Origin: a virus
Taxonomy: Duplodnaviria > Caudoviricetes
Length of the DNA stretch: 64,000 nt
Virus record (IMG/VR): IMGVR_UViG_3300017780_003104
Coordinates: 32,001-96,000 of that record
Strand: one strand, 5' to 3'
In this document: in pieces, positions 354 through 50,933 of the stretch
Position numbering within the stretch: position 1 is the stretch's first letter
Layout: every line of letters begins with the position of its first letter
Notes under the pieces: model-generated
Databases searched by the model: none
Seen by the model: the letters and a program-made list of their open reading frames with translations, nothing else
Told to the model about the DNA's origin: nothing
Translations under genes and position numbers: made by a program

Positions 354-1228
354 GGTTTGAGTTGTTTAATAATTTTTAAGGCTTCTTCTTCACTGACAAA
401 TGGTGGTTGATTAGGATAATGTCCGTGTTTATTTTTATAAATTTCTCTACCACCCATGACATTTTTGGTCCATTGTTCGGTATCTTCAGCTATAACGGAT
501 TGTGTAATTGCGTTTTCTTGTTCCTCCACAAGATCAAGACTATTATGTAGGTCTGCAAAATACCAAAATGGTGGGTGCATACCAGCTTTTATAATTTCAT
601 AAGTGTGATCAACATGTTCCCACGCATTGAGATAATTCTCGTCTATTAACCCAACAGTTTCTAAAGATTTCCTACTGTAATATGAAAACATGGCTACTGT
701 GTGTTCGTATAGATCGATTTTAATATCACCATAATCGATAGTCAATCTCGGATTGGGTTCACTTTTTTGATCGAGTAGATGTCTATTATGTAGATCGAAT
801 TGGATATCTTGTTTTCGATTGAATGGTGATCCGGGACCATAATTAAAATGTTGAATGCCTGATACTTTAGATGCTTCAATATATTTCTCAAATACCCGAT
901 CATCCTTAATATACATATCATCCTCAATTAAGAAGATATGATCACAACCATCACTTAAAAGTTTCTCTAGGCAAATATTTTTACATTTTCCAACCCCATA
1001 ATTAATATTATTAACTGTTGCGTCTATGTCACCACTCCACTCTAGTAAATATTTCTTGATATAAGATCGAGTATTTATCCCCACATCCCCACAGTCAACT
1101 TTACTATCCTCTGTGATGTACAGCTTATCTATTATATCACACTTCTTCAGGGAAGAAAATAACTTACTGAATGAGTCTTCTCTTGAGCATGTGATAATCC
1201 CGACTCCTATTTTTTCACCATTAATCAT
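350..1228 (-). CDS. GT-A fold (GT2-like) glycosyltransferase
   Basis: IGVGIITCSR start, GVGKCKN, HIFLIEDD (DxD-like) and VGLIDENY..AWEHVDH motifs. Confidence 0.8.
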   Translation of the reverse strand: MINGEKIGVGIITCSREDSFSKLFSSLKKCDIIDKLYITEDSKVDCGDVGINTRSYIKKYLLEWSGDIDATVNNINYGVGKCKNICLEKLLSDGCDHIFLIEDDMYIKDDRVFEKYIEASKVSGIQHFNYGPGSPFNRKQDIQFDLHNRHLLDQKSEPNPRLTIDYGDIKIDLYEHTVAMFSYYSRKSLETVGLIDENYLNAWEHVDHTYEIIKAGMHPPFWYFADLHNSLDLVEEQENAITQSVIAEDTEQWTKNVMGGREIYKNKHGHYPNQPPFVSEEEALKIIKQLKP

Positions 1229-1953
1229 TTTTTAAATTCGCTAATAATTTTATTAATTCTATCCTCATTTACAGTCTCTCTTTCCTGATCTTTTACCATC
1301 TGTTCAAGAACTTCTAAATTATTCGGATCTAATAGGCTATCCCCTTCAATTAGATCACCTTTATGGTCTATAAACTCACTAATAAACATCAATCTATCAT
1401 CAATAGAGGCAAAATGTTCATCGATACAAACTATTGCAGGACAATCATCGGATGGAAAAAATACATCCTGTTCCAAATTTTCCATATATTGGTCAAATAG
1501 TCCTTGAAAAACCTCATCAACCTGCTTAATATATTGAAGATCGGTATCTCTCATATTATCATTTACTATCTTTATAGCTGGGTTATACTTCAACCAAAAT
1601 ATAATATCCAAATCTCTCATCGACTCCTTGACAAAGGAAATTGTTGCTGCGGCAGTTTCATTTCCTATCTTCCCAAGAGCATTACCATGTAATGTATATG
1701 CTAAATTGTCTAAGGGGCATCTGTCATAGACGACCTTCGAATCTTTAGGATATTTTAACTGCTCCTCCATCATCCAATTCAATATTAACAACTGTGTTTC
1801 GTCGGAGGTGTTAGAAGAATGGGCTAAATTATTTTCCGTAATTACATCTCGATATGTTTTTTTAGGTGTTACATACATTGGCCAACGATTTAAGAAGGCA
1901 TTTAGTAATGTTGATTTTCCTTGCCCTGCGGTTCCACTTATAGCTATTCTCAT
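1225..1953 (-). CDS. P-loop nucleoside/nucleotide kinase (AAA_28 / dNMP-kinase-like)
   Basis: N-terminal Walker A ISGTAGQGKST and the VVYDRCPLD motif typical of NMP/deoxynucleoside kinases. Confidence 0.7.
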   Translation of the reverse strand: MRIAISGTAGQGKSTLLNAFLNRWPMYVTPKKTYRDVITENNLAHSSNTSDETQLLILNWMMEEQLKYPKDSKVVYDRCPLDNLAYTLHGNALGKIGNETAAATISFVKESMRDLDIIFWLKYNPAIKIVNDNMRDTDLQYIKQVDEVFQGLFDQYMENLEQDVFFPSDDCPAIVCIDEHFASIDDRLMFISEFIDHKGDLIEGDSLLDPNNLEVLEQMVKDQERETVNEDRINKIISEFKK

Positions 1954-9389: not shown

Positions 9390-10828
9390 TGGTGACATTT
9401 GATTACAATAAATCCTATAGAAAGGGAAAATTGATTTGTGATGAATCCATTTTATCGTTTATTCGTAATCATTTTTCTGTTAAGAATCTCAATGCATCAT
9501 TTATTCAAAGAAAACTAAAACTAAAAGGTTCAAATGCTAAAGTTCCCGAGCGGGAATATGCGATTCAAGAATCTGGAATGTTTGATTTAGGATTAGCGAA
9601 TGAGATAATATCATTTTTGCGTTCCGAACAACTTAATGATATTGCAGTTACTCCTGAATTTAAGGAAATTAGAAAATGTGGTTTGGACGTTCAGGAAGTC
9701 GTAGATACACTTAAGCATCCATTACGAGACTACCAGACCGAAACAGTTCTAAACGCTCTACAAAACGGTTGTGGAACGATTGTGGTGGCAACTGGTGGTG
9801 GTAAGAGTTTAATTCAAGCATCTATTCTTGAGAATTGGAAATTATCTAAAGGATCTCTCAAATGTTTATTGATTGTTCCCGGTGTTGGTCTTGTCAATCA
9901 ACTTTTAAAAGACTTTGAAGAATACGGTGTGAAATTCACACATTCTGGATGGACTGGAGAACTTGATACTAAGGGTAACTATACGATGCCCAAACGGGAC
10001 ACTGAAGTTGTTATAGTCAATACAGAATTATTATGTTCTCAATTCGGGAACTTTAAAGATCTAATTGATGTCGATCTCGTTTTACGGGATGAGTGTCATG
10101 GTTCAAAGCAAGGTAATCAGATTACAAAGGTTGTTTCGAAAATACGAACCCATAATAAGTTTGGATTCACTGGAACTCTTCCAAAAGAGAAGATCGATGA
10201 GTGGAAAATCATTGGAACCTTTGGTCCCGTAATTTACGAGAAAAATTCAAAGGAACTTAGAGATGAGGAATACCTCACAAATGTTCTAATACGAATTCTG
10301 AAGTTGAAACATAAACACGTTGTAAGAGGATATAAGAAAGAATTACAGATTATTCAGGATAGTGAAGAGAGACATTCCATTATCCGAAAACTTACAACAA
10401 AAATGAATAATAATGTTCTTATCATGGTCAATCGTTTGGATCATGGTAATAATTTATTAAATGCTTTACAGATTGTAGGTAAAGAAACATTTTTTGTTCA
10501 TGGCGAAATTCCAGTTTCCGAAAGAGCGGAGATAATAGCCAAGATGGAAGCACAAGATAATATTGTGTGTATTGCCATGTCATCCATTTTCTCAACAGGT
10601 ATCAACATTAAGAATTTGCATTATATTATTTTTACCGCTGGTGGTAAATCATTCATTCGAATAATTCAATCGATTGGTCGTGGATTAAGATTACATGATT
10701 CAAAAGAAAAACTTGTAATATTCGATTTATATGATAACTTTATATTCTCTACAAATCATGTGGAGGAAAGAAAGAAATTTTATGATGAGGAGAAGATTCC
10801 TTGGCGGGAGATATCGATAAACATATGA
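9389..10828 (+). CDS. uvsW: UvsW SF2 DNA helicase
   Basis: LRDYQ, VVATGGGKS, DECH, FGFTGT, FSTGINIKNL, IIQSIGRGLR motifs. Confidence 0.93.
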   Translation: MVTFDYNKSYRKGKLICDESILSFIRNHFSVKNLNASFIQRKLKLKGSNAKVPEREYAIQESGMFDLGLANEIISFLRSEQLNDIAVTPEFKEIRKCGLDVQEVVDTLKHPLRDYQTETVLNALQNGCGTIVVATGGGKSLIQASILENWKLSKGSLKCLLIVPGVGLVNQLLKDFEEYGVKFTHSGWTGELDTKGNYTMPKRDTEVVIVNTELLCSQFGNFKDLIDVDLVLRDECHGSKQGNQITKVVSKIRTHNKFGFTGTLPKEKIDEWKIIGTFGPVIYEKNSKELRDEEYLTNVLIRILKLKHKHVVRGYKKELQIIQDSEERHSIIRKLTTKMNNNVLIMVNRLDHGNNLLNALQIVGKETFFVHGEIPVSERAEIIAKMEAQDNIVCIAMSSIFSTGINIKNLHYIIFTAGGKSFIRIIQSIGRGLRLHDSKEKLVIFDLYDNFIFSTNHVEERKKFYDEEKIPWREISINI

Positions 10829-11040
10829 AAAAAAATAACACGGGAAGAATACTCTCAGATGAACATAGGGAGAAACTACGTCAGGCCAAATTAGGTAAGC
10901 ATCTTACGGAGGAACATAAAGAAAGATTGAAGGAAGCCAAATCCAAATCATCTTACAAACATTCCGAGGAAACCAAGATAAAGATAGGGCTTGCTAGTAT
11001 AGGTAGAACTAAAAATAGAAAGAATATAAATGAAAACTAA
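10825..11040 (+). CDS. stand-alone NUMOD3-repeat DNA-binding protein (start revised to 10825)
   Basis: Three NUMOD3-like units (LSDEHREKLRQA, LTEEHKERLKEA, HSEETKIKIGLA); ATGA overlap with the uvsW stop; no nuclease domain. Confidence 0.65.
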   Translation: MKKNNTGRILSDEHREKLRQAKLGKHLTEEHKERLKEAKSKSSYKHSEETKIKIGLASIGRTKNRKNINEN

Positions 11041-11482
11041 CAAAGAGGTGAAGGAACTTTTTTACGTGTCATCTAAAGTGTTCCGTGAACAACTGGAAAA
11101 ATACTACAATGATGATAAGATGACAAATGAATTAGCCACCAACGTAATAAAGATCGCTGAAGGTCTTAGTTATAATTGGAGATTCATTAATTATACCAAA
11201 TCATGGAAAGATGAGATGGTGGGAGATGCAATTGTTAAAATGTATTCTGCGTTGGAAGATAAGAAATTCCGAATTGAGTCAACATTCAATCCATTTTCAT
11301 ATTTCAACCGAATAGCATGGAATGCTTTTTCCAATCGTATTAAGAAGGAGAAGAAACAACACGAAGGACTTGAAGAATACAAACAAATGGTATATGAGGA
11401 TGAAATGAATGATTCTTCTCATGGTTCTGTTTATGTAAGACCAATGTTGGAACACGATTCAGAGGATGGTGGATACGAATGA
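11030..11482 (+). CDS. gp55: late-transcription sigma factor
   Basis: IAEGLSYNWRFINYT.SWKDEMVGDAI...NPFSYFNRIAWNAFSNRIKKEKK. Confidence 0.88.
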   Translation: MKTNKEVKELFYVSSKVFREQLEKYYNDDKMTNELATNVIKIAEGLSYNWRFINYTKSWKDEMVGDAIVKMYSALEDKKFRIESTFNPFSYFNRIAWNAFSNRIKKEKKQHEGLEEYKQMVYEDEMNDSSHGSVYVRPMLEHDSEDGGYE

Positions 11483-33619: not shown

Positions 33620-34483
33620 TTAAAATTTTAATGTTTTACAAGAATATAAACACACTGTGGTATTTGATGTAGTAGTGACCAGTGTTGGTGGTTGTGTGGT
33701 TGTTGTTTCTGGTGGTAATGTAGTGGTTACAGTTATATTTGAGAAATTATTCCCATCTCTCTCATTAGTATTGAATATTAAAGGTGTTGGAGAATTTGGT
33801 GATATCAGAATATTAGTTACATCATAGTTAGGCGAGACTATAAGCGTAGTTGGAACGGGCCAAGCACAACAATCCCTATCATCATCAATAGTCCCCCAGC
33901 TATCTTCACCTGATAATGGTATAGATGGGGTAGTAGTAGGACTATTAGGATCTATAGTTGTTGTAGTTGTTGTAGTGGGAGCTACAGTAGTAGTTGTAGT
34001 GGGAGCTACAGTAGTAGTTGTAGTGGGAGCTACAGTAGTAGTTGTAGTGGGAGCTACAGTAGTAGTTGTAGTGGGAGCTACAGTAGTAGTTGTAGTAGTT
34101 GTGGGTGAAGGAATCTTCAATACATTCCAAAGATCTATTAGATTTTTATCAAAGTCATATACAGAACTTAATGGGATTGCTGACCCCATTCCAAATGCTC
34201 CAAATTTAGTAATACTAAATTCGAGGGGGTAACGTCCACTCCTTCTTCCATTGCTCGCCATGAAATACATATTAGCAAGTGGAGGATCGAATATTGGAAC
34301 ATATGACGAACTTAATAATATATTACCACTGAGACTTGTACTTACATTATATACATAATGAGTGTCAGAATTAACTATGCTATTAATTACACCATCACTA
34401 CTAGATAATAAAGACGAAGCTGTTTGGGACCATCCAAAAGCTGATCCAGACGAAGTAGAAGTTTTGAATATACCAAATGCCAT
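33620..34483 (-). CDS. mucin-like Thr/Pro-rich virion protein, C-x3-C-x2-LKF family member 1
   Basis: Five tandem PTTTTTVA-type units, DCCAWPVP, ends TTVCLYSCKTLKF*. Confidence 0.7.
   Translation of the reverse strand: MAFGIFKTSTSSGSAFGWSQTASSLLSSSDGVINSIVNSDTHYVYNVSTSLSGNILLSSSYVPIFDPPLANMYFMASNGRRSGRYPLEFSITKFGAFGMGSAIPLSSVYDFDKNLIDLWNVLKIPSPTTTTTTTVAPTTTTTVAPTTTTTVAPTTTTTVAPTTTTTVAPTTTTTTTIDPNSPTTTPSIPLSGEDSWGTIDDDRDCCAWPVPTTLIVSPNYDVTNILISPNSPTPLIFNTNERDGNNFSNITVTTTLPPETTTTQPPTLVTTTSNTTVCLYSCKTLKF
33971..34090. repeat. 5 perfect 24-bp tandem repeats TGTAGTGGGAGCTACAGTAGTAGT
   Basis: Counted units at 33971, 33995, 34019, 34043, 34067. Confidence 0.95.
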
Positions 34484-34486
34484 TAT

Positions 34487-35614
34487 TTAATATGGTGTTT
34501 CAACAAATAGTTGAGCCGTATTTTTAAATGATAGGACTTTATTTACTGGTATATTTACTGGTGTATCGTAATTAATCACATTGATAATTGAGGTTGTAGA
34601 ACCAGAAAAATATCCAAGTATTATTTGTGATATATCACTACCTCCAACAGTAACCAGTCCATATACGTTTGTATTAGCTGTTGAATTGTTGGTAATAGTT
34701 GGTAATCTATCAGATGTAATATCTAAAGCCGTAATGGTTTCAGTTGGGATATTACTGGCAGCTACGTATATAGTTGAGCTGTAAGGAATACCTGAAATTG
34801 ACGATACTTTGTTAGCATTATTCATTAGTAATATTCTATTTGGAATATTACTAGCTGTGCTTATATCTGTGGTTAAATGGAGAAATCTTTGGAGTGTTCC
34901 ACTCCCACTTAAACCTTGTATGTAATCATCATTTGTAAAGGGTCTAGGTATTCCAATGTCAATAGTAAATGTATTTTTAAAATCACGTATAATTAGAGAA
35001 TCTCCGATACTTAAAGTAATAGCTGGGGTTAGCATGATATAAGCACTAATACTTTGAGTCGGAGCGTATACGATAGTATTAATGGTTTGTGGGACAACTA
35101 CTGGGGCAAATAATCCAGATAACGATCTAGACACTGAACTAGGTGTTGTGGTTAGTGTATTTGAGAAAACTGCTGCTTGGTAAGAACCAGTAACCTCACC
35201 ACCATTAAATGGATTAGTTCCAGTTTTATTACGTATTAATTGTGATGGAGTTGTTACACTACCAGATAGAGATATCTGAATAGTGCTTAGATTTCTAACT
35301 AATACGTAAGCTTTTTCACCTGATGGGAATTGCACATGATCCCCAACATTCATACCAGATGCGCTATTGAATATCACATTACCAGTCTGTCTATATACTG
35401 TATTACCCGATAATGTATAAGTTCCAGTCAATAATTCACTTCCGAGTTGGTTGTGGGTCCAGAAGAGAGTATTATTGATACCCATATATATTTGGCGACC
35501 TGCATTAACTGCCCAACTAGACCATATATTATGTCTTTTACCATAATCAACTATAGTTCCATCCTTTTTTAATATCGCCAAATCGATAACTGCTCCTAAT
35601 ATTGGATCTTTCAT
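34487..35614 (-). CDS. putative tail/baseplate appendage protein; paralogue of 35652..36803
   Basis: TATAAATA (35622-35629 minus); shares LGAVID..KxDG..V.YGK.HN start, GSG..QR and YDTP...VETP with its neighbour. Confidence 0.6.
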   Translation of the reverse strand: MKDPILGAVIDLAILKKDGTIVDYGKRHNIWSSWAVNAGRQIYMGINNTLFWTHNQLGSELLTGTYTLSGNTVYRQTGNVIFNSASGMNVGDHVQFPSGEKAYVLVRNLSTIQISLSGSVTTPSQLIRNKTGTNPFNGGEVTGSYQAAVFSNTLTTTPSSVSRSLSGLFAPVVVPQTINTIVYAPTQSISAYIMLTPAITLSIGDSLIIRDFKNTFTIDIGIPRPFTNDDYIQGLSGSGTLQRFLHLTTDISTASNIPNRILLMNNANKVSSISGIPYSSTIYVAASNIPTETITALDITSDRLPTITNNSTANTNVYGLVTVGGSDISQIILGYFSGSTTSIINVINYDTPVNIPVNKVLSFKNTAQLFVETPY

Positions 35615-35651
35615 ATATTCTTATTTATAATTAATGTTTATATAGTAAACC

Positions 35652-36803
35652 TTATGGAGTTTCAACGTCCAATTTTAAAGTTGAGTAAATAGTTAAGTTT
35701 CTACTACCCGCTGCTATTGCTATTGGTGTATCATATTCGATTATACATGATATTACGGGTGGTACTGATGCATCACCGACCAATATTTGTTTAATTGGAG
35801 TTGCATCAGATGTGAATGCTCCAAATGCACTTAATAGACTGGTTGCATTATAGTCAATATCAGCTAGGTTATTTCTGGTGGTTGTGCTTATTGTATATTT
35901 CGCAGTCACACTTGGTCTATATGTGGTGGATCGCATCGCTGATAAAAATGGTACTTTATTTGCATCAGTTAGTAGATAAATTCTAGTATTGACCCCAGTA
36001 TGTCCTGTGCCAAGAGAGTATTCATCTCTATCATATGGAATGGTTCGTTGCATTTTACCAGATCCCACCAATCCAGTTATGGGTGATACCGCAAATACTC
36101 TCGGAGCGTCTACATTAAATGTTATTGAATACTGGTAGTCTGGTATCACAAGAGCATCACCCACATCCAACCTTATAGGTGGAACGATATCTATATACCC
36201 TCCATGGAAACTAGTATCATGATATGTTATTCGATATATATCATATGTCGAGAATGTCGGTGGGAATTGGGCAGATAAATTTACACTATATATTCCAGAT
36301 GTGCTTAATGAGGTATAATATGGATCAGTAGTAATTACACCTAGGTTTGTTTGCTTCACTAAAGTATTCGATGTCATATTAATTCCATATCCAACGGATT
36401 CTGTTTTGTGTAATCGAACTATCGAACTTGGTTCAGATCCAGTTACACTAATAGGACAAGATGAGAATGTTGTCGTTCCAGTAGTTTTGTAACATTTAAA
36501 ACCAGATGGGAATTCGAACAACGACCCATTGGGGATAGTTAAAAGTGATACGGGGTTGATACCATATAATATTTTGCCTGTTACATAGTAAGTTCCAGAT
36601 AATGTCGAGGAACCATACCCAAGATCATCGGTGTTATCATATGTTGAGAAGGTTCTAGGGTCAGACATGTAAAGTCTTCTCCATGTTAAACCCTTATTCA
36701 CTAATCCCCCCAATACGTTATGGTATTTTCCATAATTCACCAATGATCCATCATTTTTTATGACAGATATATCTATAACCGCTCCTAATTTCGCATTATT
36801 CAT
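35652..36803 (-). CDS. putative tail/baseplate appendage protein; paralogue of 34487..35614
   Basis: Whole-length motif correspondence with 34487..35614; beta-rich, Thr/Ser-rich. Confidence 0.6.
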   Translation of the reverse strand: MNNAKLGAVIDISVIKNDGSLVNYGKYHNVLGGLVNKGLTWRRLYMSDPRTFSTYDNTDDLGYGSSTLSGTYYVTGKILYGINPVSLLTIPNGSLFEFPSGFKCYKTTGTTTFSSCPISVTGSEPSSIVRLHKTESVGYGINMTSNTLVKQTNLGVITTDPYYTSLSTSGIYSVNLSAQFPPTFSTYDIYRITYHDTSFHGGYIDIVPPIRLDVGDALVIPDYQYSITFNVDAPRVFAVSPITGLVGSGKMQRTIPYDRDEYSLGTGHTGVNTRIYLLTDANKVPFLSAMRSTTYRPSVTAKYTISTTTRNNLADIDYNATSLLSAFGAFTSDATPIKQILVGDASVPPVISCIIEYDTPIAIAAGSRNLTIYSTLKLDVETP

Positions 36804-36810
36804 CTTATAA

Positions 36811-37389
36811 TTATGTCAATCTTCCAGCTAAGTTCCATATTGCTCCAGTATTATCACTCAAGGAATCGAATATAACATCACCCATAATACCAGATAATCC
36901 ATATACCATACCAGAAGTATCAGTCTCTGTCACATCATATGTATTCCCCATAATACCAGATAATCCATATACCATACCAGAAGTATCAGTTAATATAATA
37001 TCGGATTCGTTTTGACCAACTCCATATAATGTCCCATTTTGCGGGGATTCTAAAACTAATGAAAATACATGAGTGCTACTAACTCCCAAATAGGCTGATG
37101 AGGATTTACCACTATCAAAGTATTGAGAAGACCCATTACCCATAACATACCCACTAATACTATGAGTTGCACTATTTGGATAAGACCCACTGGTACCAGT
37201 TTTTAAACATATCGAATTTGCAGTCGCATTTCCCCAAACTGGGAACCACATAAAGTTATGTAAAGACCATCTACCAGATACTTTCTCGGCAAAAATGAAA
37301 TAATCAATGGCACTTATTTTAAATTCTGGAACCGCTGATCCCATAGCACTTTCAATTGCAGCTACATATATGAGAGTTTCGGGTTCCAT
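36811..37389 (-). CDS. putative tail-associated protein with an internal duplication
   Basis: Structural-block context; TDTSGMVYGLSGIMG occurs twice. Confidence 0.55.
   Translation of the reverse strand: MEPETLIYVAAIESAMGSAVPEFKISAIDYFIFAEKVSGRWSLHNFMWFPVWGNATANSICLKTGTSGSYPNSATHSISGYVMGNGSSQYFDSGKSSSAYLGVSSTHVFSLVLESPQNGTLYGVGQNESDIILTDTSGMVYGLSGIMGNTYDVTETDTSGMVYGLSGIMGDVIFDSLSDNTGAIWNLAGRLT
36881..36990. repeat. exact 44-bp direct repeat, period 66 nt
   Basis: Copies at 36881-36924 and 36947-36990. Confidence 0.9.
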
Positions 37390-37391
37390 TT

Positions 37392-38591
37392 TTAGAATTT
37401 AAGTTTTTCACATCCATCATCACACTTTATTATAGTGGTTGTTGTGGTTGTAGTGGTTGTAGTGGTTGTAGTTGTCGTAGTTGTCGGTGCTAATGTAGTT
37501 ATGATAGGTTTAAACTTATCAATATTTAATGGTGGGTTGGTTGATATCAACTGAGGATTAGATAACTGGGATTTTGGTAATATATATTTTGGATATTCTG
37601 TATTATATTCTGGAACTCTTTTAGAGCATGGGCATGCTATATTAGTAGGTTCTGGTGTTGTTGTTGTAGTAGTAGTAGGTTCTGGTGTTGTTGTTATTGT
37701 TGTTATTGGTGTAGGATCTACTATACAAATTTTATTAATCCAAAGATTACCTTGTGGGACGTAATGAGTTCTCTGATATAGTCCCGTATAGGTCCATATA
37801 GCACTTATATGATTATTGGTGAAAACTTCGCTTTCACCATATAGAGTTTCATTGAAGGATGGTAATACTATAATGGTTGGTGTTGGTATTGGTGCTGGGT
37901 TAACGTTTTGTAACACATAGTCATAAGATATATTTGCTAATACGAACCCCACTCCAACAGTCCTTTCAATTAATTCATCCCCATAAGAAGGGTTATATAC
38001 ATCACCTTTATATAAGCTTATTGTAGGCCCCAAACTCCTATACCAAGTTTCATCTGGTTTTGGAAATCCTCCCTCAGTGTTTTCTGGTACGAATGTAATT
38101 TCAACATAGTGTGGAGATGAGATCACTCCACTAACAGATCTTGCATAGTACAATATCGGGTAATCATCTAGTATATTGACAGTAACTGGTAATCTAACTT
38201 CAATATAATTTGGGTTAAACACCTCCCAACCCAACCCAACCCCAACAGTTTGAGTGATGGTAACATCTCCTAAATTATAAGTGTGACCAGCAGTAACATG
38301 TATTGATGGATCTGTAGGTATAAGAAATTGATACTCATTATTAATACCATCAATATTAAGTAGATCGTATGTCCCATCGGCGCAATACTTAACACCTTCC
38401 ACTGTTATCGTTGTATTCTCAATGGTATCGTCATAACCAAGTGCAACTTGGCCATCTATAGCCACAGTCATGATAGACATTTCACCATTAAGATAGCTAA
38501 TATCTGTAGATATAAATGATCGAATAACCCCATAATTACAATAATGGTAATCTTTTGGATCTGGGTATTGTATACTAGGATCTGTTGGCAT
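37392..38591 (-). CDS. mucin-like Thr-rich virion protein, C-x3-C-x2-LKF family member 2
   Basis: TTTPEPTTTTTTTPEP, CPCSKRVP, long poly-Thr run, ends KCDDGCEKLKF*. Confidence 0.7.
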   Translation of the reverse strand: MPTDPSIQYPDPKDYHYCNYGVIRSFISTDISYLNGEMSIMTVAIDGQVALGYDDTIENTTITVEGVKYCADGTYDLLNIDGINNEYQFLIPTDPSIHVTAGHTYNLGDVTITQTVGVGLGWEVFNPNYIEVRLPVTVNILDDYPILYYARSVSGVISSPHYVEITFVPENTEGGFPKPDETWYRSLGPTISLYKGDVYNPSYGDELIERTVGVGFVLANISYDYVLQNVNPAPIPTPTIIVLPSFNETLYGESEVFTNNHISAIWTYTGLYQRTHYVPQGNLWINKICIVDPTPITTITTTPEPTTTTTTTPEPTNIACPCSKRVPEYNTEYPKYILPKSQLSNPQLISTNPPLNIDKFKPIITTLAPTTTTTTTTTTTTTTTTTIIKCDDGCEKLKF

Positions 38592-38594
38592 AAT

Positions 38595-39773
38595 TTAAAA
38601 CTTTAAAACTTTACAATTATTTAAACATTCGGTAGTTGGTATTAGGGTTGTGGTGGTTGTGGTGGTTGTAGTGGTTGTAGTTGGCTTTAGTGTAGTTGTT
38701 ACGATTATACCCGTATATATCTGTTTCTGGGGAGGATTATTTAAATTTATAATGGGTTGATCAATATATATTGAGTTATCGAATTTAAAATTTGGATTTC
38801 CAGATGGTGTCGATGGAACCTCTGGTAAACATACCTCACAAGGACCAGATGATGGGGAGGGTGTAGTAGTGGTAGTAGTGGTAGTAGTAGTAGTTGGTAT
38901 TGGGGTGGTACCAATAGGCGGAATAACATCACAATTCACCGTCATATCACCAACCGAACATGCAAATCTTGAATGATTATATATTGGTAGCCCTTGTGGT
39001 GGTTGTACATCCCATCCAAGATCACCTTCACCATATACATGAATATATATGGTGTAAGGTAAGTATACTTGCTTAGTTAAATATCCATCGGGCCTAGCTC
39101 CTTCAATGTCTACTTGATTTGTATACGGTATAGTTACCCTAACTGTTGTATTAGTGGTTTCACATGGATGTAATGATTTTAGATTAATCGATTGTAAAGT
39201 TCCTTCGGGGTCATCTAGTAAACCCCCCGAATGGCTAAAAATTACAAAAGATGATGTTCCGCCTATTGTTGGGGTTATCGTCGCTTCCTCTACTAATTCT
39301 GCCGCATAATTATTGTAAGAACTACCAAATGTTGGATTATTATTATTAATATTTCCAGATATTGTCATGACAATATACACAAGATATTCAACTCTATCGT
39401 ATTTTGCACCACCATTGAATCCTTCGCCGAATTCATCGCCAAGGTAGTACTCGTAATCATGATCCGGTAGAGGTATACTGGTTGTGGTTGGCGGATTTAG
39501 TGGTGTATTTACACCATAATCTGTTTTATATATCCAGTAGTTAAATCCTCCGTATATAAGATTAAGAGAATTTATTAATCCATCCCTTATATATTTCGTA
39601 CCTACTACATCTATCGTGGTGTCGGTATGGGGGCCATATAAGGGATCACCGGGAGCTACACATGGTTCAGATGTGAATGCTGTGATGCGCTGGTCTATTA
39701 ATGCATTATAATTTCCATCAGTTGGGTGGAGCCAACTAACTTCGGGTCTATGCACTATAAATGTCGAAGGCAT
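38595..39773 (-). CDS. mucin-like Thr-rich virion protein, C-x3-C-x2-LKF family member 3
   Basis: Two poly-Thr runs, CEVCLPEVP, ends ECLNNCKVLKF*; N-domain similar to member 2 (TTI.V.G.KY..DG). Confidence 0.7.
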   Translation of the reverse strand: MPSTFIVHRPEVSWLHPTDGNYNALIDQRITAFTSEPCVAPGDPLYGPHTDTTIDVVGTKYIRDGLINSLNLIYGGFNYWIYKTDYGVNTPLNPPTTTSIPLPDHDYEYYLGDEFGEGFNGGAKYDRVEYLVYIVMTISGNINNNNPTFGSSYNNYAAELVEEATITPTIGGTSSFVIFSHSGGLLDDPEGTLQSINLKSLHPCETTNTTVRVTIPYTNQVDIEGARPDGYLTKQVYLPYTIYIHVYGEGDLGWDVQPPQGLPIYNHSRFACSVGDMTVNCDVIPPIGTTPIPTTTTTTTTTTTPSPSSGPCEVCLPEVPSTPSGNPNFKFDNSIYIDQPIINLNNPPQKQIYTGIIVTTTLKPTTTTTTTTTTTTLIPTTECLNNCKVLKF

Positions 39774-40473: not shown

Positions 40474-41559
40474 TTAGAAATCTATGGTTAGGCATATATT
40501 AGCATTTTTAGTCACACCAGAAGAATTTATAACTTTAATTTCACATGATGATAGATCTGTTGCCGTCACTCTGGCCGAACAATCCAAGGCATCAGAACCA
40601 ACTATAGTAGCCATTGGGATATAATTAGTAGTTATAGGGAGGAATGTGACTTTATAATGACCAGTGGCTAGTGTTGAGTAACTTATAACATGTCTACTAA
40701 ATACACCACCTCCAGATAATGCATTATACTTAAATAAAAGTTTACTACTACGAATGGTTACATTATTAGTTAATGTTGAGATTTCTGTCCCAGTTGATGT
40801 TAATCCGTTAACCAATGAATATAATCCATGTTCGATAGTGACAGTTTTATCTGATACGAGACTTGCAGGAATATTACCCAAAGCAATCTTCCCATTTTGG
40901 ATATATAACGGTGATGATAGAGCATCTTGGGATATACTATAAGAAGATAATGGATTTAGTGCTATTTTTCCACCAATAACTGATAGGGGTGAGGTTACTG
41001 CGCTATTCGATATATAACCAGCAGGAATACTACCCAATACTATCTTACCATTTTGGATATATAAAGGTGCTGAAAGGGCATCTTGTGATATGCTATAAGC
41101 CGATAATGGATTTAGTGCTATTCTTCCACCACTAACTGATAGGGGTGAGGTTAATAAATCCTGAGATATTGAATTGGCTGATAATGGATTTAAAACTATA
41201 GAATTAGCTGATGATATGGATATGAAACGAGAACCACTATATGATCCCCCAATTGATTTCCAATCACTGATAGTTGCACCATTATTAGCCGATAAAACAT
41301 ATAATGTATTATGTTGAGATGAAAATCCAAAGTCTCCAATAATTGCGGGTTGGATCGCAGAATCCGTTATCAATGGTGATATACCTTTGAACTTATTTCC
41401 TGCGATAACACCACCAACGGTGTAACCATTACCCACAAATAATCGTTCTTGATCTGTTGTAAACCCTAATTCCCCCGAATCTAGGGTAATTTGAGTTCGA
41501 TCAAAATTCGAACCTTGACGAACCTTTAATTTAATAATTGAATTGTTTAAAATTTCCAT
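40474..41559 (-). CDS. tail fibre-like protein with Mtd_N-like N-terminus and 52-aa internal repeats
   Basis: LKVRQG...LDSGELGFTTDQERLFVGNG; repeated LNPLS.YSISQDALS.PLYIQNGKI. Confidence 0.6.
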   Translation of the reverse strand: MEILNNSIIKLKVRQGSNFDRTQITLDSGELGFTTDQERLFVGNGYTVGGVIAGNKFKGISPLITDSAIQPAIIGDFGFSSQHNTLYVLSANNGATISDWKSIGGSYSGSRFISISSANSIVLNPLSANSISQDLLTSPLSVSGGRIALNPLSAYSISQDALSAPLYIQNGKIVLGSIPAGYISNSAVTSPLSVIGGKIALNPLSSYSISQDALSSPLYIQNGKIALGNIPASLVSDKTVTIEHGLYSLVNGLTSTGTEISTLTNNVTIRSSKLLFKYNALSGGGVFSRHVISYSTLATGHYKVTFLPITTNYIPMATIVGSDALDCSARVTATDLSSCEIKVINSSGVTKNANICLTIDF

Positions 41560-41565
41560 AATATA

Positions 41566-42864
41566 TTAGTAAGCGAATATTGGTATTGCAAATCTACCCA
41601 CTTGTTGACCGGATCTAGTTGTAGTATTTCCTTCAAATGTGATAAATCCAGCAGAAGATAATGTTATAACAGATCCATTTGATGATAACGCAGTAAATTG
41701 AGTTATCATCACACCAGTTAGAGGTCCATTTATAGTATGTGATGGACTACCATTAAATAATGCAGATAATGAGTTACTAGAATTGAATGAACTTAATGCG
41801 GAGTTACCGGACAGTGTTCCATATATAGAAGATACTTGAGATGTTACTCTACCAAACGTATCTACTACAATTTGTGGTAGCTGATTAGTTCCAGAAGAAT
41901 TTAAGGTACTTAAGCTTATAACACCAGCATCAGTTTTAACTATAGTATTATTATCTACGTTAGTTAGTGTAGTAGAAATCGAAGATGTGGTGGTGCTGTA
42001 AGTTAAACCACTTCCAAACCACGATGAACTTAAATCAGTGAATCTTAGACTATATGGTAATGGAATATCAGTTTTTAAGCTTATAACACCAGCATCAGTC
42101 TTTATTATAGTAGCATTATCTACGTTAGTTAGTGTGGTCGATAATGAAGATGTTGTTAAACTATAAGTTAAACCACTTCCAAACCACGATGAACTTAAAT
42201 CAGAGAATCTTAGACTATATGGTAAGGGAGTATCAGTTTTCAATGATATAAAATTACCATTAAACTTTAAGAAATTTGTATCTAGATCTACATTTACTAT
42301 ACTTCCAGATCCACCACTCAATCCAAGTCCAAAAGAAGACGATAACATCTCAACTTCTGTTACACCACCAGCTGCTAATTTTAATTTATTAGTGCTTATA
42401 GTGAAATCACCAGTGTCGTAATTCAGTTGTAATATATCTGAGTCTATTTTAATCCCATTACTGATTGTAGTTGGATCTAAATATTTAGATTTTATGGATG
42501 ATAAATTTATTACCAATTGATTGTTTGCATCATAACTAAAAATCGAAGGATCTGCCGATAATCGACCTATAATGGTCCAAGAATTTATATTACTATAATC
42601 TGGAGATGTTAATTGATATAATGTACCTTCAACCGGAACGACATCTCCGATTTCAGATTTAATTGCCAACATCGAAGAGACGGTATATCCATATGGGAAT
42701 ATTTTACTCCCGGTGGGTTTACCACCAAGAGTGACTCCATCACCAACATAAAGTCTGGTAGTGTCCAGTGTGTGTGCTAACTCGCCTTGATCAAATACTA
42801 TTAATTTTCTTTGATCATCGGTGCCTCTTCTGGCTTTTATCTTCGATATTTTAATTTCTGGCAT
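41566..42864 (-). CDS. tail fibre-like protein with Mtd_N-like N-terminus and two 55-aa repeats
   Basis: IKARRG...FDQGELAHTLDTTRLYVGDG; 165-nt period repeat at about 41910-42240; VDTFGRVT fibre motif. Confidence 0.6.
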   Translation of the reverse strand: MPEIKISKIKARRGTDDQRKLIVFDQGELAHTLDTTRLYVGDGVTLGGKPTGSKIFPYGYTVSSMLAIKSEIGDVVPVEGTLYQLTSPDYSNINSWTIIGRLSADPSIFSYDANNQLVINLSSIKSKYLDPTTISNGIKIDSDILQLNYDTGDFTISTNKLKLAAGGVTEVEMLSSSFGLGLSGGSGSIVNVDLDTNFLKFNGNFISLKTDTPLPYSLRFSDLSSSWFGSGLTYSLTTSSLSTTLTNVDNATIIKTDAGVISLKTDIPLPYSLRFTDLSSSWFGSGLTYSTTTSSISTTLTNVDNNTIVKTDAGVISLSTLNSSGTNQLPQIVVDTFGRVTSQVSSIYGTLSGNSALSSFNSSNSLSALFNGSPSHTINGPLTGVMITQFTALSSNGSVITLSSAGFITFEGNTTTRSGQQVGRFAIPIFAY

Positions 42865-42879
42865 ATTGAATATATCTAA

Positions 42880-43542
42880 TTACGCTGTTCTCTTCCAAAT
42901 ATATAGACCAAATGATGGTGGCATGTTATTATGTGCGCCACTACCACCAGCACTTGGTAACACTCCCATATATCTTCCATCCTTTGAATCGTCCGGTCCA
43001 TCGCTTCTAAATCTCGACTCAGTGGTTGGACTTGATTCATTACGATCATTGAACAAATAGAACTGTTCTCCATCTGAAGCTTTAAGACTATGAGTGTGTG
43101 ATGGCATTTCCGATTCGGAAAGGGTGTGTCTATATTCTCCAGAATTTTCCCCCCCGGCTATAGTTACACTAACCCCATTAGAATCAACTCCAGTGCCAAT
43201 CCCTGCGACAAACATCCCCTCACTTATACGAACCCATGTTCCACCCATCGAGTAACCGGGATTTAAATCAACCGCTGTGAAATACACAGTATGGACTGGA
43301 AAAAAACGATTTAAAAGTGTCGTATACTCAGCCTCTGTGTCTACATTTTCGATAACTAACGATCCCACTGTTAATTGTCCACAAATTCTAGCCCCATTAC
43401 AAGTTCTACCTAGACTGAAGGAACTTTCGTTGCCAAGACCATCATACATGGGGGTAAGCCCAGTTTCAGGTAAAGGTTGACCCCCTGAATGTAATAAACC
43501 ATCGAAGGTATCTGCGATATATGTATCTGATAAAGAACTCAT
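42880..43542 (-). CDS. baseplate/tail-collar protein (gp10 C-terminal-like)
   Basis: FPVHTVY...NPG..MGGTW, HTLSESEMPSHTH, HNNMPP..GLYIWKRTA; TAAATA upstream. Confidence 0.7.
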   Translation of the reverse strand: MSSLSDTYIADTFDGLLHSGGQPLPETGLTPMYDGLGNESSFSLGRTCNGARICGQLTVGSLVIENVDTEAEYTTLLNRFFPVHTVYFTAVDLNPGYSMGGTWVRISEGMFVAGIGTGVDSNGVSVTIAGGENSGEYRHTLSESEMPSHTHSLKASDGEQFYLFNDRNESSPTTESRFRSDGPDDSKDGRYMGVLPSAGGSGAHNNMPPSFGLYIWKRTA

Positions 43543-50846: not shown

Positions 50847-50933
50847 TTGATATTATTTATATCAAAGATCTGAATATCGTTTGGATATGAAATTATTTAG
50901 TTGAAAAACAACAATTTGGAGTAAATACGATAA

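Follow-up and report, generated by a model that had tools for sequence, protein, structure and literature searches.

Why should three proteins encoded within a few kilobases of an uncultured phage genome end in nearly the same ten residues? The question was raised by a 64,000-nucleotide stretch of DNA (hereafter the window), bases 32001-96000 of the 211,724-bp IMG/VR virus record IMGVR_UViG_3300017780_003104, which has direct terminal repeats and comes from an uncultured T4-like phage. A sequence-only reading had picked out three open reading frames (ORFs), here called proteins A, B and C, with the ends CLYSCKTLKF, CDDGCEKLKF and CLNNCKVLKF. It had taken the shared ending, C-x3-C-x2-LKF-stop, for a docking or sorting element, or for a metal or disulfide knot. 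Coordinates and ends were confirmed, all three ORFs being on the minus strand. Judged from their sequences, the three ORFs are paralogues of an undescribed, widespread protein family in an uncultured T4-like phage clade, marked by a short C-terminal tag. There is about an even chance that these proteins are O-glycosylated, mucin-like virion appendages in which the tag, a stapled C-terminal hairpin, serves as an anchor or assembly element.

In the whole genome, the strict motif was found in these three of 802 six-frame ORFs and in no other. With the genome's own residue frequencies, its chance occurrence was estimated at 5e-8 per protein, or 1.6e-5 expected in 300 proteins. Pairwise BLAST of the C-terminal modules against each other was weak (E 0.02-0.07). 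No Pfam hit of the three proteins passed the cut-off, sub-threshold matches being to Mucin and DUF1961, and there was no PHROG hit. A sequence profile of the C-terminal module found no match in the PDB (best E 6 and 8.6). AlphaFold2 run on protein C from a single sequence gave no confident fold (predicted local distance difference test, pLDDT, 28), and ESM Atlas look-ups for C and for the N-terminal heads of A and B returned nothing usable.

Relatives were gathered in IMG/VR by scans with the glycosyltransferase (GT) encoded next to protein A and with a profile of the 232-aa lectin-like neighbour of protein C, and longer contigs were fetched. The 177 related loci (L numbers below) were surveyed for the pattern C-x(1-10)-C-x2-[L/P]-x-[F/Y/W] at the ends of 4,111 ORFs, each 60 aa or longer. 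Tagged ORFs numbered 123 (98 distinct), all on the operon strand and none on the opposite strand. As found, the family tag reads C-x(3-9)-C-[N/K]-x-L-x-[F/Y/W]-stop. Counted over 101 distinct proteins, window copies included, position -6 was Cys in every one, position -3 was Leu in 100, and the last residue was Phe in 76, Tyr in 20 and Trp in 5. Position -5 was mostly Asn (65) or Lys (29), and position -2 was most often Gly (41), Lys (24), Asn (16) or Gln (11). The upstream Cys was set off by 3 residues (37 cases), 4 (28) or 5 (23), and also by 6, 7 or 9. Conservation in related phages, on which the sequence-only reading had staked its claim, was thereby found in about 100 homologues. The LKF ending is real in the window copies but is the variant of one lineage and a minority in the family; the invariant core is Cys(-6), Leu(-3) and the terminal aromatic.

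The residues had also been said to be kept while the codons differ, and this proved right both between the window copies and across the tails of the family. Among 91 distinct tails, Cys(-6) was written TGT in 38 and TGC in 53, Leu(-3) was written with all six codons, and all three stop codons were used. Because the invariant residues are written with every synonym and followed by all three stops, the constraint acts on the protein and not on the DNA. A similarity produced by chance, by low complexity or by a DNA- or RNA-level constraint, such as the ribosome-binding site of the next gene, would agree with the weak BLAST scores of the modules and with a tag just before the GT start in most loci. 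The probability left to it is nevertheless close to nil: about 1e-5 occurrences were expected in the genome against 3 observed, and about 0.1 (residue-frequency estimate) in the 4,111 ORFs against 123, all on one strand, while synonymous codons and stops vary freely and the gene after B or C is not the GT.

Searches beyond the surveyed loci gave further members. A single-protein search of 5.8 billion proteins returned one match, from Logan, with an unrelated 135-aa head, a module 70% identical to that of C and a syntenic 1.9-kb contig. A profile of four modules, run on 1.84 billion representatives, picked out six true members whose heads are unrelated, five of them in addition to the Logan match. 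Its sole false positive, P0008, was an out-of-frame reading of a Thr-repeat gene; poly-Thr DNA yields long ORFs in other frames, in the window for example at 33945-34232. As a negative control, unrelated poly-Thr proteins were retrieved by low-complexity similarity with protein A, and the tag was found in none of these 77. Locus searches of IMG/VR with protein C alone or with the lectin-like protein alone found no relatives. Fixed-codon (TGT/TAA) DNA scans of IMG/VR and of metagenome contigs gave, among the matches listed, chance hits in short ORFs alone; they missed the family because TGC and other stop codons are common. Eight further members compared with Pfam gave a single hit, a sub-threshold Beta_helix in a member of 1,359 aa (L013, E 5e-5).

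Small members of the family may be systematically missed by gene callers. In L144, a Thr/Ser-rich tagged ORF of 96 aa (10817-11107, plus strand; C-x7-C-NKLGF) lies between the lectin-like gene and the GT gene; it was left uncalled by the gene caller of the source, and an 88-aa ORF on the opposite strand was called instead.

The tagged genes stand close to a gene for a family-2 glycosyltransferase (GT2), which has at least 500 relatives in IMG/VR. Among the relatives, a tagged ORF lay within 400 nt upstream of the GT in 90 cases, and in 71 the GT started 11-14 nt after it. Intervals from the last fibre gene to the GT were compared in a non-redundant set of 54, from which the window was left out: 44 held one tagged gene, 4 held two, 1 held three and 5 held none, so that 49 (91%) held one to three. 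Runs of at least five Thr/Ser residues occur in 94 of the 101 members. From gene adjacency and from the way Thr-richness follows the GT, the enzyme is presumed to O-glycosylate the Thr-rich stalks. Peak Thr density (per 30 aa) had a median of 0.60 in tagged proteins of GT loci, and was 0.20-0.40 in five distinct tagged proteins from loci without a GT (L145, L179, L181, L183 and L208), a call for which at least 2 kb of sequence downstream was required (Mann-Whitney p 1.7e-4, uncorrected for phylogeny). All five of these Thr-poor proteins kept the tag; one is Pro-rich instead. In the other direction, GT homologues adjoin untagged Thr-rich proteins in L012/L241, L014, L015, L016, L274/275 and L297. 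Thr-richness tracks the GT; the tag does not.

This double dissociation bears on an alternative in which the downstream GT docks on the tag, which would tether the enzyme to the C-terminus of its substrate so that it can work along the poly-Thr chain. The gene spacing, the 91% of intervals with a tagged ORF, the Thr/Ser runs and the presence of a GT in all lectin-less tagged loci examined would suit such a role, but the tagged Thr-poor proteins of GT-less loci and the GT homologues beside untagged proteins would not, and copies B and C are tagged although they lie 4-6 kb from the GT. GT docking is accordingly judged unlikely, with real weight kept for it because of the 11-14-nt coupling in 71 loci. 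Of what the sequence-only reading had proposed, a shared C-terminal element under protein-level selection, with heads that are variable or absent, is strongly supported, and the recruitment of the GT is weakened. What the tag goes with is neither glycosylation nor the lectin-like protein but a place as the last gene product of the baseplate-fibre operon.

Distant GT loci L014, L297 and L276 have no tagged gene and carry an ORF of about 360 aa just upstream of the GT (plus strand; 8917-9999 in L014); by eye alone, the Cys-rich ends of these ORFs look SPASM/radical-SAM-like.

Members of the family are 64-2,426 aa long (median 250). The minimal ones, of about 100-215 aa, are Thr/Ser/Pro-rich from residue 2 to the last 20 or so residues, where a short hydrophobic, Pro-containing stretch is followed by the Cys loop and L-x-F; the tag is their sole non-repetitive part. 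Since the rest is a Thr/Ser/Pro polymer, the tag is the only part of them able to form a specific structure. No signal peptide or leader was seen at the N-termini by inspection. Giant tagged proteins of 1,900-2,430 aa occur in L182, L187, L188, L273, L283 and L286 (plus strand) and end C-x9-C-NVLK-[F/W]; here the tag may bear heads that are true fibres or resemble depolymerases.

The layout described for the window proteins was found in all three: a head, stalk 1 (Thr/Pro), an inner Cys pair with (V/I)P after it, some 45 aa of spacer containing P-x-[FY], the string I-x-TTT-L-x-P, stalk 2 (Thr) and the tag. It does not extend to the whole family, in which the inner Cys pair and the spacer mark a subgroup. 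Interchangeable heads were likewise found at two positions, those after the lectin-like gene, but not next to the GT, where the head of A is conserved (64% identity with its orthologue, against 46% for the module). First-position heads are 311, 135, 176 or just 10 aa long in different phages. Headless members of 94-124 aa fill the same slot as protein C, among them a complete 94-aa gene in L139 in the place of the 392-aa protein.

Most genomes have a single tagged gene. The three-copy state is rare, being seen in the window and in contig L139, and is accompanied by genes for proteins of 192, 383 and 375 aa. In this lineage each position has its own form of the inner pair: C-x2-C-[LF]-P-x-[VI]-P after the lectin-like gene, CPC-x-K-[RK]-[VI]-P at the second position and DCC-x-WP-[VI]-P before the GT. 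Orthologues of B in L139 and L019 have the same subtype as B, and orthologues of A were found in L139 and L011. In 12 of 13 members the inner pair stands 68-76 aa from the tag, despite slippage-prone stalks. The stalks of B and C have a 9-bp periodicity, and the 24-bp tandem repeat in stalk 1 of A (5.6 copies, 99% matches) points to a recent slippage expansion. In the L011 orthologue of A (393-1457, plus strand; tag C-x4-C-KTLTF) the distance is 129 aa, which may stem from an internal duplication of the spacer.

These features could also be read as an oligomerisation knot, in which the tag, together with the inner Cys pair in the window's subgroup, registers several chains and staples them covalently at the C-terminal ends of the stalks, in the manner of collagen cystine knots or the T4 fibritin foldon, and does no docking. 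A Cys pair follows each stalk in the window proteins; both pairs vary in the number of residues between the two Cys (0-3 and 3-9), as would suit bonds between chains; the 68-76-aa distance is kept across the three position-specific subtypes; and the set of three subtypes per genome, common to the window and L139, is compatible with a heterotrimer. The stalks, however, have no Gly-X-Y or coiled-coil periodicity, many members have the terminal pair alone, the spacing in L011 departs from the rule, and a single tagged gene is the usual state. A knot as the whole function of the tag is improbable on this balance, and it would be compatible with anchoring.

Features of the window are collected in the table. 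The minus-strand late operon encodes, in order, proteins of 900, 167, 758 and 596 aa, a Gp10_C protein, two Mtd_N fibres, the 232-aa protein, protein C, protein B, the 192-aa protein, the 383-aa and 375-aa paralogues, protein A and the GT2. The same order, p900-p167-p758-p596-Gp10_C-fibre-fibre-(lectin-like)-tagged gene(s)-GT, is conserved in relatives, with two conserved opposite-strand genes beyond. The tagged genes are the last gene or genes of a conserved baseplate-fibre operon.

Table. Coordinates in the window of the tagged proteins, their parts and neighbouring genes
Feature	Position	Strand	Remarks
Tagged protein C, 392 aa	38595..39773	-	Position 1, right behind the lectin-like gene; a head of some 290 aa precedes stalk 1, the inner module and the tag
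Tagged protein B, 399 aa	37392..38591	-	Position 2; inner Cys pair CPC-x-K-R-VP
Tagged protein A, 287 aa	33620..34483	-	Directly upstream of the GT; conserved head; inner pair DCC-x-WP-VP
C-terminal module of C (Cys pair 1 to last residue)	38598..38840	-	Terminal tag 38598-38627
C-terminal module of B	37395..37634	-	Terminal tag 37395-37424
C-terminal module of A	33623..33871	-	Terminal tag 33623-33652
Stalk 1 of A	33963..34096	-	Tandem repeat; five copies of an eight-residue Thr-rich unit
Gp10_C baseplate protein	42880-43542	-	Upstream operon member, block 40474..43542
Two Mtd_N fibre proteins	41566-42864, 40474-41559	-	Upstream operon members
Protein with predicted legume-lectin fold, 232 aa	39774..40472	-	AlphaFold2, Foldseek and synteny
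Three genes without assigned function (192, 383, 375 aa) between tagged copies	34487..37389	-	Three-copy state only
192-aa gene	36811-37389	-	
383-aa gene	35652-36803	-	
375-aa gene	34487-35614	-	
GT2-family glycosyltransferase, 288 aa	32741..33607	-	Pfam Glycos_transf_2, E 7e-7

The operon also bears on a non-virion alternative, in which the products would be released or secreted glyco-polypeptides (decoys, glycocin-like peptides or modifiers of the host surface) and the tag would serve processing or export. The small size of minimal members and the adjacent GT2, as in glycocin clusters, agree with it. Such a role is very improbable for the last genes of a baseplate-fibre operon with 0-5-nt junctions, whose products reach 2,426 aa and by inspection lack a signal peptide or leader; in addition, no transporter, peptidase or thioredoxin genes were found, and a search of the genome gave no radical SAM gene.

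The virion-appendage reading would work as follows. A member would consist of an optional N-terminal head (absent, or up to about 2,300 aa), a mucin-like Thr/Ser/Pro-rich body and the C-terminal tag of about 20 aa. The body would probably be O-glycosylated by the GT2 encoded just downstream. In the tag, a disulfide or a metal would staple a small hairpin, whose last strand would have Leu(-3) and the closing aromatic residue on the same side and would plug into a pocket of a partner in the baseplate or fibre. Plugged in this way, the tag would fix the glycosylated chain, and any head, to the virion. An attachment or assembly role is suggested because the tag is tied to the terminal operon product and is the sole structured element of minimal members. 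A stapled beta-hairpin is suggested by the alternation of L(-3) and the aromatic (-1), by the run-up to the first Cys, rich in Pro and beta-branched residues, and by the hydrophilic, turn-like and variable loop between the two Cys residues. The last strand of such a hairpin would extend a sheet of the partner or lie in a groove of it. Two other kinds of C-terminal signal were considered and rejected: CaaX-type prenylation, as the Cys is six residues from the end and not four, and the beta-signal of outer-membrane proteins, as there is neither a signal peptide nor an alternating hydrophobic pattern beyond -3.

Several points weigh against the appendage reading. Both the virion location and the binding partner are putative, and no structural homologue was found. 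A role related to the GT would account just as well for the close spacing between the stop of the tagged gene and the GT start, and the loci scored as GT-less could have a GT elsewhere in the genome. The cytoplasm in which phage particles are put together is reducing, and a search of the phage genome found no Erv1/Alr sulfhydryl oxidase and no thioredoxin, so a disulfide in the tag would have to form after lysis. A PDZ-like domain was likewise not found in the phage genome (PDZ_2 and PDZ_6 absent).

A more specific version of the appendage reading, held tentatively and at somewhat less than even chance, is a modular 'plug-and-display' arrangement carried by a large uncultured T4-like clade. 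A Cys-loop/L-x-F tag of 10-20 aa would plug an O-glycosylated mucin-like tether into the baseplate-fibre complex, with an N-terminus either bare, as a glycan brush, or loaded with interchangeable heads of about 100 to more than 2,000 aa; a dedicated GT would be translationally coupled to the last tagged gene. To our knowledge, glycosylation of phage virions has so far been documented for very few groups. If the appendage reading is true, a widespread uncultured T4-like lineage coats itself with self-made mucin-like glycoproteins, the tag is a compact, transferable attachment signal, and the series from a bare tether to a 2,400-aa head is a system in which host-range and adhesion modules evolve by N-terminal cassette exchange. 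Plug-and-display, if true, would give tailed phages their first mucin-like class of glycoprotein appendage and a new kind of virion attachment signal. The end-anchored pattern C..C-x2-L-x-F would then also be a simple sequence handle for appendage genes in metagenomes, where annotation can miss them.

The neighbouring genes and the genome were characterised alongside. Replication genes are T4-like (family-B polymerase, UvsX/RecA, gp41-type helicase, gp46/47-like nuclease and primase) and very divergent. Their polymerase shares no more than 30% identity with that of any phage in GenBank, the nearest being Microcystis, Synechococcus, Pelagibacter and Caulobacter myoviruses. Neither the region nor protein C, the 900-aa baseplate protein or the GT was matched in GenBank phages. 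The late promoter box of T4 type (TATAAATA) was not enriched in the window (15 observed versus 17.8 expected). One box precedes the start of the 375-aa gene by a few bases (35622-35629, minus strand), and another that of the 900-aa gene with which the operon opens (50854-50861, minus strand). The 375-aa and 383-aa genes are adjacent paralogues (32% identical, E 5e-38) without a family match; together with the 192-aa gene they were seen in the three-copy state alone (window, L139 and fragment L011). The 192-aa protein has a near-perfect internal duplication of about 15 residues near its C-terminus, and a homologue is conserved after the second tagged gene in L019 and L139.

The 232-aa neighbour of protein C is confidently predicted to have a legume-lectin jelly-roll fold. 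An AlphaFold2 model from a 41-sequence alignment had pLDDT 90 and a predicted template-modelling score of 0.83, and the top 50 Foldseek matches in the PDB consisted entirely of legume lectins and lectin-like modules (E down to 2.6e-7, template-modelling score 0.34-0.58), several of them solved with N-acetylgalactosamine (GalNAc) or Tn antigen. The Pfam score for Lectin_legB was sub-threshold (13.3 bits, cut-off 26.3). By inspection, the conserved strand A-V-A-F-D-T has Ala in place of the usual metal-binding Glu. In a viral library the protein resembled the heads of uncharacterised fibre proteins, one of which has an Mtd_N domain. It has at least 58 metagenome homologues, always encoded between the second Mtd_N fibre gene and the tagged gene; the gene is optional, many tagged genes following the fibre gene directly. 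A lectin that grips the phage's own glycosylated stalk, as a general rule, was rejected, being contradicted by lectin-less tagged loci and by a locus with lectin and tag that has neither a GT nor a Thr stalk.

A literature search turned up neither a tag of this kind nor any account of mucin-like fibre proteins in phages, and the family was compared with known systems that share single features with it. Glycocin clusters, such as those of sublancin and glycocin F, pair a small peptide with an adjacent GT2; their leader and core peptide, two nested C-x6-C loops, export and peptidase genes and thiol-disulfide oxidoreductases have no counterpart in proteins of 64-2426 aa with Cys spacings of 3-9, often one Cys pair, no thioredoxin and a place in a baseplate-fibre operon. 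Collagen type III and the fibril-associated collagens with interrupted triple helices (FACIT) have C-terminal cystine knots, in which a closely spaced Cys pair ends an extended, Pro-containing rod. The tagged proteins likewise carry a close Cys pair at the end of a Pro-containing rod, but their stalks are poly-Thr/Pro without Gly-X-Y, and a trimer is hypothetical here. Class II PDZ ligands and the C-terminal aromatic-x-Phe signal of outer-membrane proteins read by DegS have hydrophobic residues at positions 0 and -2 and bind by beta-strand addition into a groove. The free C-terminus of the tag, L-x-F/Y/W, fits the class II pattern (Leu in 100 and Phe, Tyr or Trp in 101 of 101), whereas the invariant Cys(-6) is not part of those signals and no PDZ domain was detected in the phage. 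As the tagged proteins are without a signal peptide, a periplasmic reader is unlikely before lysis.

Glycosylated virion proteins are known from the mycobacteriophages Che8 and Rita, where the substrates are capsid and tail-tube subunits and the GT genes are distant (Freeman et al. 2023, cited in PMC11256854). The likeness lies in phage GTs paired with the structural proteins that they are thought to modify and in a glycan coat on the particle (PMC11256854). Glycosylation was demonstrated in those phages and is here deduced. Mucin-like polypeptides made for the purpose, swappable heads and a C-terminal Cys-loop/L-x-F tag are not known from them. Mucin-type O-glycoproteins and the polypeptide GalNAc-transferases offer a closer parallel for the body, with slippage-evolving tandem repeats rich in Thr/Ser/Pro and a dedicated enzyme of GT-A/GT2 type, a dedication that is presumed for the phage. 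A repetitive Thr/Ser/Pro-rich body was found here, with Thr/Ser runs in 94 of 101 members, a median peak Thr density of 0.60 and the 24-bp repeat. The setting differs, being a phage and a cytoplasm; the phage enzyme is without a lectin domain, and the tag has no counterpart in mucins.

For the tag, the nearest comparison is with two T4 proteins: Hoc, in which a C-terminal capsid-binding domain displays N-terminal domains, and fibritin, whose foldon is a C-terminal folding nucleus. Like these, the tagged proteins have a conserved C-terminal element that would serve attachment or assembly, a chain that would project outward, and genes in a late structural region of a T4-like genome. No similarity to Fibritin_C or Hoc was found in the Pfam scan at E 0.1; the tag is just 10-20 aa long and Cys-based, and the body is of low complexity, not a set of Ig domains or a coiled coil. 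Self-glycosylation of phages and C-terminally anchored decoration are already known; the tag itself is new.

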